DNA of 64,000 nucleotides from Candidatus Thorarchaeota archaeon (GTDB lineage: Archaea; Asgardarchaeota; Thorarchaeia; Thorarchaeales; Thorarchaeaceae), in assembly GCA_048882485.1 (NCBI GenBank), contig JBHLRP010000003.1, forward strand, positions 1-64,000, read 5' to 3'. The notes under the pieces are model-generated. The model did not search any database, was not told where the DNA came from, and worked only from the letters and a program-made list of their open reading frames with translations. This document shows positions 19,009-21,238 of the stretch, in pieces (position 1 is the stretch's first letter; each line of letters starts with the position of its first letter). The translations under genes were made by a program, and so were the position numbers.

Positions 19009-19314
19009 ATGACATCATTCAGCACTGTGCTCGCAGAGTGTCCACAATGCGATCACCGATGGAATGCTCCTGTGTTCATGTCTTTATGCACTTGGCTAAA
19101 TCCAAAGATGGTGAAAGACCTCTATGAGAATGGCAGCCATATCGAGTGCCCAAACTGTGGCACGAGCATTCAGGTGCATCATAATATTCTAATCAACTGT
19201 CCGAAGGGGATGTTCTATATCGACACGAGTCAAGACATCTTTGATATGAGGTATAAGCTCTATGAATGGGGAATTGTCAATCTGGACGGAGAAGTTGTGA
19301 ACTCGCAATTCTAA
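19009..19314 (+). CDS. Zinc-ribbon protein (CpXC-like)
   Basis: CPQC and CPNCG pairs. Confidence 0.75.
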   Translation: MTSFSTVLAECPQCDHRWNAPVFMSLCTWLNPKMVKDLYENGSHIECPNCGTSIQVHHNILINCPKGMFYIDTSQDIFDMRYKLYEWGIVNLDGEVVNSQF

Positions 19315-19319
19315 CTAAG

Positions 19320-19392
19320 AAGAAGGTGAGCGGACGACAGCCCGAAGACATGTCGTCCGCTCGGCCGAGCTCGACTCGGATCTTACTCGGTA
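19320..19392 (-). ncRNA. Candidate small non-coding RNA with cUUCGg-capped hairpin
   Basis: Minus strand: 12-bp perfect stem gagcggacgaca/tgtcgtccgctc plus gtc-TTCG-ggc; ccgag/ctcgg hairpin; upstream TATA (ctatatatg about 19412-20); downstream ccttcttctt. Confidence 0.55.
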
Positions 19393-19504
19393 ACAAGAAC
19401 TATTGATTTCTCATATATAGGGCATGCAATACCGGCAAAACAGGTGTATCTAAACACACTTAGACTTTATCGGGTTCTGAACGAAAATGAAATTGAAAGG
19501 AGGA

Positions 19505-19539
19505 GTTGAGTCAGGATTGTATACACTATCCTGGTCAAC
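19505..19539. terminator. Hairpin 3' of the small basic ORF
   Basis: gttga-g-tcaggat / atcctgg-tcaac. Confidence 0.4.
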
Positions 19540-19562
19540 ACATCCTTCTGATCTGAGTTATA

Positions 19563-19766
19563 TCAGCGAACGATTGTGGCTCTATTATCGATAAGCCCTC
19601 TATCTTTGAGCCGCTCCAAGTTCTTAACCGCTGCTTCTGCCGCTCTGTGACGGCGAACGATTTTGACGTCTGGATGCTCTGTGGTGATCTCATCCATCCT
19701 GCTCTTCAGCGGTCTAATCTTGGCAATCGCTCTCTTGAGGGTTGGAATTCTCTTTACTTCTAACAT
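19563..19766 (-). CDS. Small basic hypothetical protein (67 aa)
   Basis: MLEVKRIPTLKRAIAKIRPLKSR...; protein-like amphipathic composition; GAGTGTGA SD-like sequence upstream; 3' hairpin. Confidence 0.65.
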   Translation of the reverse strand: MLEVKRIPTLKRAIAKIRPLKSRMDEITTEHPDVKIVRRHRAAEAAVKNLERLKDRGLIDNRATIVR

Positions 19767-19792
19767 TATTATCACACTCTATATCCAGTGAG

Positions 19793-20146: not shown

Positions 20147-21238
20147 ATGAAAATCCACGCGAACTTGGACGAAACCGATGTACGAATTCTGAAATCTCTA
20201 GCCGAGCATAGGAAGAAAGTATCAACCCGTGAATTGAGTGATGAGCTTGACATACCAGACAGAACTGTCAGATATAGACTGAGGAAGCTCAAGGAGAAAG
20301 GATTGCTATGTCCTCCCAAGCTCCAGACGTATGAGAGAAAACTTGGTCTAGGTGAGAACCTAGTGCTTCTCCAGAGTAATCCGTCAATGGAGCAGCAATT
20401 GATTGATCTCTTGGACGATACCGAGTTCTTTTACTATTATGGGCCCACCTATGGCAAATATGATGGCTTCATGGTCTATGCAATGTATCCACTAGTAACG
20501 CCGAGGATGGTGCAGCAGCTAGCTGAAGAGATGATGGACAGGGATCTTATCAAGGACTACTTCATAATGGATATGGTAGACTACACTCGAAAGATGGCAG
20601 TACTCGAGCCTCTATTACCCGAGAGTGACTGGTCATGGGATGAATGGTCTGAGAAGATTGAACAGATCATGAAGAATGACTGTGAGATCGATTTGGGTCT
20701 CGAGGAATTCCCAAAGGCGGTGAAATTCGACTATACCGATATCCAGATCATCAAGCATATGGTAGAGAATCCGACCAGTACTCTGAAAGAGGTTGGTGAT
20801 GCATTGGAGCCAGCAATGTCTCTGACTCAGGTACATAAGCGTGTCAAGAGGCTGGAGGATGAAGGAATCATCAGAGGCTTTAAACCCTCTTTCACGCCTT
20901 TCAAGGAATCTGTTTCAGTTTCAATATTCTTCAAATCCCGCGACCATGCGAAGAAGCTTCTATGTGGCTTCACAAGGCTGCCTTTCGAAATCAATATCGC
21001 AATGGAGAACAAGTCAACCTACAACATATGGGTGATGATGCCATCGAGTGAATTGAATCAGTTCCTCCAGAGAATTAACTTCTTCAGAAAATATACCGAA
21101 GAATTCTTCATCCAAATGTTCATCAAAGGCAAAAGCAAAGGCTACACCCATCTACTTACAGCATTCAATCTTGATACTCAGAGCTGGGAGATGCCTATCT
21201 CCGAAACCTTGGTGAAAATCAAGGAGATCACCCAGTAA
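20147..21238 (+). CDS. Lrp/AsnC-like transcriptional regulator with two wHTH-RAM modules
   Basis: LDETDVRIL..L...STRELSDELDIPDRTVRYRLRKLKEKG and FDYTDIQII....TLKEVGDAL...VHKRVKRLEDEGII. Confidence 0.88.
   Translation: MKIHANLDETDVRILKSLAEHRKKVSTRELSDELDIPDRTVRYRLRKLKEKGLLCPPKLQTYERKLGLGENLVLLQSNPSMEQQLIDLLDDTEFFYYYGPTYGKYDGFMVYAMYPLVTPRMVQQLAEEMMDRDLIKDYFIMDMVDYTRKMAVLEPLLPESDWSWDEWSEKIEQIMKNDCEIDLGLEEFPKAVKFDYTDIQIIKHMVENPTSTLKEVGDALEPAMSLTQVHKRVKRLEDEGIIRGFKPSFTPFKESVSVSIFFKSRDHAKKLLCGFTRLPFEINIAMENKSTYNIWVMMPSSELNQFLQRINFFRKYTEEFFIQMFIKGKSKGYTHLLTAFNLDTQSWEMPISETLVKIKEITQ

Follow-up and report, generated by a model that had tools for sequence, protein, structure and literature searches.

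A putative small RNA of the Thorarchaeota with complementarity to the 5' ends of peptide-transporter mRNAs

On the minus strand of the 64,000-nucleotide stretch of Candidatus Thorarchaeota DNA analysed here (the window), between two convergent open reading frames, lies a short GC-rich element that, on balance, we lean towards reading as an independently transcribed, trans-acting antisense small RNA directed at the mRNA of a peptide transporter. Sequence analysis establishes its conservation, structure, strand, promoter architecture and complementarity. Judged by alignment, the window RNA is a diverged sister copy of an RNA found throughout its Thorarchaeota family, whose main copy stands next to a protease gene. 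The core of this RNA is the reverse complement of the first nucleotides of the predicted mRNA of an OppA-like peptide-binding protein.

Results

Position and structure of the window element

The features of the element, together with its main copy and target site elsewhere in the source genome (G000), are collected in Table 1. The initial annotation, made from the letters of the window, had proposed a stand-alone minus-strand small RNA with its own TATA box, and comparative evidence supports this proposal. The TATA box is present and starts 28 nt ahead of the predicted start, and the 12-bp perfect stem, bulge and 3-bp stem, which contains a U-G pair and closes a UUCG loop (19343-19346), all lie where they had been placed, followed by the pyrimidine-rich stretch described for them. 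The RNA had also been called richer in G+C than its flanks; it contains 59% G+C, compared with 38% in the 100 nt on either side. No conserved ORF is found inside it, in line with the initial annotation, and its single AUG frame is missing from relatives.

Table 1. Features of the window RNA gene, with the main copy and the target site in the source genome.
Feature	Position	Strand	Remarks
Upstream palindrome	19442..19461	minus	AAGTGY-N8-RCACYT type; fixed spacing to the TATA box in both copies and across genera
TTGC element	19435..19438	minus	between palindrome and TATA box; present in nearly all copies
TATA box	19412-19420	minus	CTATATATG; ATATATG invariant in six copies of the window genus
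Predicted transcription start	19391	minus	A after pyrimidine; placed from the TATA distance
Window RNA gene	19391 to ~19316	minus	predicted, ~76 nt, GC-rich, two hairpins
Single-stranded 5' tail	19380..19391	minus	specific to the sister copy; extra unpaired CCGAGU seed copy
Hairpin 1	19365..19379	minus	invariant core; first 10 nt (CCGAGUCGAG in the window) form the predicted seed
Hairpin 2	19328..19362	minus	12-bp stem (19362-19351 with 19339-19328), 1-nt bulge, 3-bp stem
3' tail	19311..19327	minus	conserved ACC, then pyrimidine-rich tract
Main copy of the source genome	G000:C36:17563-17667	minus	between S8 subtilase gene and mfnB
Target site of the source genome	G000:C2:41646-41662	plus	predicted 5'-terminal mRNA hairpin

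On the minus strand the RNA folds at -38.9 kcal/mol (z = -3.65), an energy equalled by none of 200 shuffles, and the plus-strand fold is weaker at -33.2 kcal/mol. The motif CCGAG occurs three times (19390-19386, 19379-19375 and 19364-19360, minus strand) and its complement CUCGG once (19369-19365), as had been pointed out; just two of the three CCGAG copies are kept in relatives. Comparison across genera indicates that the functional core is the CCGAG-containing hairpin 1 and not the UUCG hairpin, and hairpin 2 is probably a stabilising 3' hairpin. The 3' end that we infer for the window RNA is uncertain, because this copy contains no run of four or more T residues and its tail offers merely a CUUCUUCUU tract. 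Transcription might therefore read antisense into the convergent gene that ends at 19314.

That gene (19009-19314, plus strand) is a 101-aa zinc-ribbon ORF, whose stop codon abuts the RNA. On the other side, a 70-aa ORF (19563-19775, minus strand) ends 171 nt before the predicted RNA start and is followed by its own hairpin (about 19531-19510) and T-rich tract, matching the upstream ORF with its own hairpin that had been noted some 170 nt away. This small basic ORF (67-70 aa among relatives) is conserved at the protein level in five genomes of the genus and has no Pfam match; compared with the C-terminus of the subtilase encoded beside the main copy, as a possible remnant of a segmental duplication, it showed no similarity. 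Its distance from the RNA ranges from 145 to 395 nt among relatives. The downstream neighbour also changes within the genus: a convergent zinc-ribbon gene in two genomes, a convergent DUF6935 gene in two, and a same-strand 450-aa ORF in at least two. The zinc-ribbon gene is absent from relatives that retain the RNA. Gene order in the genus thus indicates that the RNA is not bound to the 3' end of either flanking gene. Further along the window, a 363-aa protein with two winged-helix modules of the Lrp/AsnC type (20147-21238, plus strand) is syntenic with the RNA in five genomes and is a candidate regulator.

Conservation and covariation within the genus

The source assembly comprises 3.96 Mb in 157 contigs and is 90.5% complete. 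BLAST finds a single copy of the element in it, and a covariance model adds just one further, diverged sister copy; the copy count that the initial annotation had suggested as a test of a repeat origin is thus one plus one sister, not that of a dispersed repeat. Within the window, no repeat family includes the RNA. BLAST matches the RNA and its promoter in five other genomes of the genus, at 72-93% identity. The conserved block starts about 70 nt upstream of the RNA with the palindrome, runs through the TTGC element and the TATA box and stops shortly past hairpin 2. Promoter, RNA and pyrimidine-rich tail move as one unit, in at least three gene neighbourhoods among the six genomes.

When the six copies are aligned with MAFFT, 98% of the cells in the two hairpins are paired, a share that drops to 29-46% on sliding the partner columns; both-sided changes occur at four pairs. 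Nine cells of this alignment hold G-U or U-G pairs, and since all nine would become A-C mismatches on the opposite strand, the transcribed strand is the minus strand. Hairpin 2 shows compensatory changes at 9-10 pairs overall, and across alignments 94-98% of its cells are paired, falling to 26-46% when partner columns are slid by one to three positions. RNAalifold, applied to an independent MAFFT alignment of 24 copies, returns the identical two hairpins, with 9 of 17 pairs compensated. Homologues and compensatory changes, which had been proposed as a check on the element, are thus both at hand, in the form of six copies in the genus, a family defined by the covariance model and a covarying hairpin 2. 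The further claim that the wobble pair and the tetraloop work on the minus strand only is borne out by the covariation alignment as regards the wobble; the UUCG loop is restricted to the window genus.

A family-wide RNA with a main copy and a sister copy

A covariance model was built from six copies and then rebuilt from 15 matches (model R2). Within the same taxonomic family it matches 60 of the 86 genomes and 13 of the 16 genera, mostly once per genome; among 124 genomes from 26 other Asgard families it matches none. In four genera where the model missed some or all genomes, diverged copies were recognised by eye after the subtilase gene. In another family of the same order (f2), a subtilase homologue occurs without the RNA behind it. 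RNA length across copies is 76-105 nt.

The main copy lies 58-108 nt past the stop codon of a gene for a 691-aa S8 subtilase, of secreted type, at all 30 loci compared. The gene after it varies, being an MFS transporter at 22 loci, mfnB in the window genus and others elsewhere. Two RNA copies per genome are found in the window genus and in one neighbouring genus. The window copy shares with the main copy the promoter palindrome, the core and the 3' hairpin, and differs from it in the 5' tail, where main copies have an A/C-rich tail. Its hairpin 1, with 5 bp and a 5-nt loop, is also tighter than the one in the main copy, and the loop sequence differs.

Across 13 genera, hairpin 1 is invariant and reads CCGAGUCGAA, one or two variable bases and then UCGGA(U); the top of hairpin 2 is variable across the family. 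The main copy of the source genome, on contig C36, carries a 22-nt hairpin inserted into hairpin 1. A run of at least five T residues follows hairpin 2 at a distance of 6-16 nt in 17 of 30 main copies, and a run of four T residues is present in three of seven sister copies.

Promoter architecture

The upstream palindrome, AAGTGTGTT, is identical in front of the window copy and of the C36 main copy. A transcription factor acting as a dimer probably binds there. In the source genome, the combination of palindrome and TTGC element is found in non-coding DNA only at the two RNA genes, the other sites being in coding sequence. Both RNA copies are probably switched together, because this promoter site is common to both. 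Main copies have TTTAAAAG at the TATA position and sister copies TATATAT, and the spacing to the AC start, which is kept in 37 aligned RNA copies, is preserved. Taken computationally, the case for a promoter belonging to the RNA consists of the conserved TATA box, AC start, palindrome and TTGC element, which accompany the RNA in at least three gene contexts. Where an MFS gene lies downstream, it has a TATA-like box of its own in the gap after the RNA.

Three further promoter observations were made. In the gap between RNA and MFS gene, a CAGCAC-TTTACATA-like box is conserved about 40-55 nt before the MFS start codon (six loci); it is probably the MFS gene's own promoter. Promoters of the transporter genes discussed below have in common, 50-70 nt ahead of the mRNA start, a GTGTATC-type half-site and CATAAC-GC beside the TATA box. 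This half-site looks similar to one half of the RNA palindrome, a weak lead towards a common regulator of RNA and transporter; the strict palindrome of the RNA genes is present in just 7 of 33 transporter promoters. Finally, three tandem palindromes of the GGGTGTG-GAAA-CGCACA type precede a TATA-like box elsewhere in the source genome (G000:C1:257519-257640) and are probably the operator array of another regulator.

Complementarity to OppA-like transporter mRNAs

An OppA-like gene, for the peptide-binding protein of an Opp-type ABC transporter, has a 5' UTR whose first 16-17 nt match the core of hairpin 1 in reverse complement. The complementary parts are the first 10 nt of hairpin 1 and a further 5-6 nt beyond the variable bulge. 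With at most one mismatch, the 17-mer complement occurs in 54 of the 86 genomes of the family, against three control matches, and in some 40 genomes it points to a second locus apart from the RNA gene. At each second locus examined, a TTTTAT-type TATA box starts 29-30 nt ahead of the 17-mer, a distance that puts the 17-mer at the predicted start of the mRNA; next come GGAGAUAGAGAGAAU and the AUG of an SBP_bac_5 protein with a signal peptide. A 16-nt form of the target, without the variable base, is present in additional genera.

In the source genome, the gene concerned (contig C2) encodes a 630-aa family-5 solute-binding protein (SBP_bac_5, OppA/DppA type), with a Pfam match to profile positions 143-344 near the protein N-terminus. 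It comes after genes for OppC-like and OppB-like permeases, with a promoter of its own. The target stretch of the mRNA is itself predicted to fold as a 5'-terminal hairpin just ahead of a Shine-Dalgarno-like GGAGA. A motif consisting of the seed complement, 0-14 nt and GGAGA is found at 61 sites, spread over 52 of the 86 genomes and 14 of the 16 genera, against six control sites, and some genomes have two to four such sites, before different binding-protein paralogues.

The window RNA would form 10 bp (one of them G-U) with the C2 mRNA, followed by one mismatch and 4 bp, in a duplex of -24.9 kcal/mol. When co-folded with the 5' end of this mRNA, the window copy gains a net -7.2 kcal/mol and the main copy -8.6 kcal/mol, and the C36 RNA co-folded with the mRNA has all 17 nt paired, in a three-way junction. 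All seven sister copies retain 9-10 nt of the seed.

Scans within the source genome place the transporter 5' region unremarkably for the window copy, at rank 340 of 4,042 by duplex energy and 43 of 4,048 by contiguous pairing; the scan of 4,042 start regions is noisy, and the transporter does not stand out in it as the partner of this copy. The case for the target therefore rests on comparison across genomes. Likewise, the degenerate 14-mer complement with one mismatch allowed has seven matches in the source genome against 15 in the control, which is no enrichment, and the useful 14-mer match gained meaning only through the family-wide test. A better target for the 5' tail of the window copy was sought by short-query BLAST on both strands, which returned only 11-14-mers at chance level, and a genome-wide search for a better complementary site for the window RNA found none. 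Assignment of the window copy to the transporter is drawn from family membership, retention of the seed and the shared promoter, and on these grounds there is about an even chance that it acts on the same OppA-like target as the main copy.

A 15-nt same-sense match to the core was also seen in the first codons of a GNAT acetyltransferase gene (AUGAGUCGAAAUCGGAUU, G000:C10:60583-60597). It may be a chance match or a competing site, and it indicates that such matches can arise outside the proposed circuit.

Comparison with known RNA classes

No Rfam family matches the window at gathering score; a permissive scan of 19100-19700 returned two chance-level hits (E-values of 1.4 and 7), both outside the RNA. 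ARAGORN predicts no tRNA. A box C/D sRNA was rejected, since the CUGAUGA of the main copies is fully Watson-Crick paired in hairpin 2, covaries away in the window copy and has no 3' D box to go with it. A hammerhead ribozyme fails in a similar way, its CUGAUGA and GAAA motifs being present but paired and covarying away. Hairpin 2 is a perfect 12-bp stem without a pocket and the conserved 3' motif is NCC rather than ACA, which argues against a box H/ACA sRNA. Against a riboswitch or leader stand the lack of a constant downstream gene, the convergent arrangement in the window, and the T-runs and second TATA-like box that lie between the RNA and the gene beyond it. The absence of a conserved ORF speaks against a small peptide or RiPP precursor between protease and transporter. 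A REP repeat or bidirectional terminator does not fit one copy plus a sister, G-U pairs that suit one strand, and persistence of the element where there is no convergent gene. A SECIS element and a tRNA-like minihelix (a 12-bp stem followed by NCC) were considered and dropped, and pairing between the 5' and 3' ends of the RNA proved to be trivial A/U pairing only.

Discussion

A first question is whether the complementarity acts as RNA or as a shared DNA element. The 16-17-bp site, with its CCGA/TCGG arms and 7-bp centre, could be a transcription-factor site located downstream of both starts, the complementarity at the RNA level then being a by-product of its opposite orientation in the two genes. 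The motif is an imperfect palindrome, as is often seen in sites of dimeric factors; it spans +1 to +17 of the transporter gene and roughly +13 to +29 of the RNA gene, both typical positions for a repressor; and both partners are nearly invariant, so that covariation cannot part a DNA from an RNA constraint. RNA-mRNA covariation accordingly amounts to a handful of events, and the variable central position shows none. We nevertheless consider such an operator rather unlikely. Two insertions split the site and leave its halves in place: the 22-nt hairpin at the variable bulge of the main RNA copies of the window genus, and a 17-nt hairpin at the matching position in the middle of the target in a single transporter 5' UTR, that of G055:C17, some 30-70 nt ahead of the start codon of the binding protein. 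Both halves stay complementary in either case. These insertions favour RNA pairing, because they would destroy a DNA site and can be accommodated in an RNA three-way junction. In another genome (G045), a U-to-C change in the mRNA seed site is matched by an A-to-G change in the sister RNA copy. Roughly five of the eight uncompensated deviations, a small sample, yield G-U pairs. Several transporter paralogues retain just the 10-nt half adjoining GGAGA, and the orientation relative to transcription is constant at every locus. In genus g5, an RNA tail peculiar to that lineage (CCUUU) and an insert in the mRNA lengthen the duplex to 15 + 5 bp (-32 to -36 kcal/mol). A search for a compensated mRNA site in genus g27, where the RNA core reads GUCAAA, found no enrichment, all matches being coding.

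The remaining alternatives concern the window copy itself. This copy might be a real RNA that works otherwise, as a holder of a protein, a decoy for the partner of the main copy, or a regulator of some other mRNA through its 5' tail. The tail and the loop of hairpin 1 are indeed unlike those of the main copy, hairpin 1 is tighter, pairing with the transporter is not outstanding within the source genome, and the invariant loop might just as well be recognised by a protein. No better complementary site turned up in the genome, though, the promoter site is that of the main copy, and the seven sister copies keep the seed, one of them with the change that compensates its own mRNA; we therefore judge a separate role unlikely, if to be taken seriously. 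Distinctly less probable is a cis-acting element, either a terminator or 3' stabiliser of the convergent flanking genes or a leader of the downstream gene. Its place between convergent ORFs, against the stop codon of the plus-strand gene, would suit the former, and the same-strand 450-aa ORF that comes next in two relatives the latter. Relatives without the zinc-ribbon gene still have the RNA, however, at a variable distance from the upstream ORF and with the conserved TATA box and palindrome moving along with it; the wobble pairs suit one strand only, and what follows downstream is in turn an MFS gene, mfnB or a convergent gene, with T-runs and a second TATA-like box intervening. Nothing beyond the palindromic appearance speaks for a REP-like dispersed repeat or a GC-rich palindrome arisen by chance, and the probability of this reading is negligible in view of one BLAST copy in 3.96 Mb, one sister by covariance model, no repeat family in the window and covarying conservation across genera.

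For the trans-acting antisense RNA that we favour, the following mechanism can be envisaged. The complementary hairpins of RNA and mRNA, with stems of 4-5 bp, might contact each other loop to loop and zip into a duplex of 15-17 bp. This duplex would displace the 5'-terminal hairpin of the mRNA and end 2-10 nt before the Shine-Dalgarno-like GGAGA, where it could hinder ribosome loading or alter 5'-end-dependent decay of the transporter mRNA. As to the direction of the effect, repression would be our guess. The unpaired CCGAGU at the 5' end of the window copy might offer an open toehold to the same arm of the mRNA. From complementarity and promoter architecture we infer transcription of the RNA, its pairing in the cell and an effect of that pairing, and the RNA probably tunes peptide import. 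Its fixed site beside the subtilase gene, along with its dedicated promoter, suggests that this control may be tied to the supply of protein or peptides.

The closest functional parallel is GcvB of enterobacteria, which regulates oppA, dppA and other peptide and amino-acid transporter mRNAs (PMC3658540, PMC9299463). Like GcvB, the Thorarchaeota RNA would be a stand-alone RNA with its own regulated promoter and a conserved seed against the 5' UTRs of peptide-ABC binding-protein mRNAs, and in some Thorarchaeota genomes several binding-protein paralogues carry the target motif. The resemblance is confined to the proposed function: the two share no homology in sequence or structure, the Thorarchaeota RNA has no Rfam match, and it comes from an archaeon, in which no Hfq-dependent pathway has been demonstrated. 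Moreover, the GcvB seed is linear, GU-rich and directed at CA-rich sites, whereas the seed of the Thorarchaeota RNA sits in a hairpin, is complementary in near-perfect fashion over 16-17 nt and mirrors a hairpin at the 5' terminus of the mRNA. Among archaea, sRNA132 of Haloferax volcanii is an intergenic RNA linked to the transcript of an ABC transporter operon (PMC6560208; reviewed in PMC4152357 and PMC5867862). Both are intergenic archaeal RNAs with a link, in our case a predicted one, to an ABC transporter and a promoter logic of the BRE/TATA type. They are unrelated in sequence, and the Thorarchaeota RNA belongs to the Asgard archaea and would target the extreme 5' end of its mRNA. RNAs of the sRNA132 type were found by experiment, while ours is predicted from sequence comparison alone.

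Pairing between complementary hairpins recalls CopA/CopT and RNA I/RNA II, the kissing-hairpin antisense pairs of plasmids, in which the two RNAs of a pair come from opposite strands of a single locus. In the Thorarchaeota, too, complementary stem-loops could pair loop to loop and extend, with a central bulge tolerated. In contrast to the plasmid pairs, the Thorarchaeota RNA and its target genes are unlinked, so their complementarity must be maintained by selection. The presence of two copies has a counterpart in sibling small RNAs such as OmrA/OmrB and Qrr1-5. As in these, paralogous RNAs in one genome have the same promoter site, seed and 3' hairpin and differ in the 5' tail; there is no homology, and the sibling relation of the Thorarchaeota copies is deduced from alignment. 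A full-text search of the accessible literature found no description of a regulatory RNA in Asgard archaea or Thorarchaeota. The combination proposed here is that of a protease-adjacent RNA, with two sibling genes under one type of promoter site, that pairs hairpin to hairpin with the 5' ends of peptide-binding-protein mRNAs, and we see an even prospect of its being correct.

If true, this would be the first conserved pair of small RNA and regulated mRNA to be defined in the Asgard archaea. Hosts of this group are uncultured or barely cultured, so their regulation must be read from genomes, and the present work offers a concrete pair, an RNA of 76-105 nt and a 17-nt mRNA site, each found in more than 50 of the 86 genomes of the family. 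The covariance model and the promoter palindrome can also serve as a template when the RNA is annotated in new genomes. The pair would also link the breakdown of extracellular protein to the uptake of peptides at the post-transcriptional level. Thorarchaeota are thought to live largely on peptides, and control of the main peptide-binding protein by an RNA encoded beside a protease gene would bear on their core metabolism.
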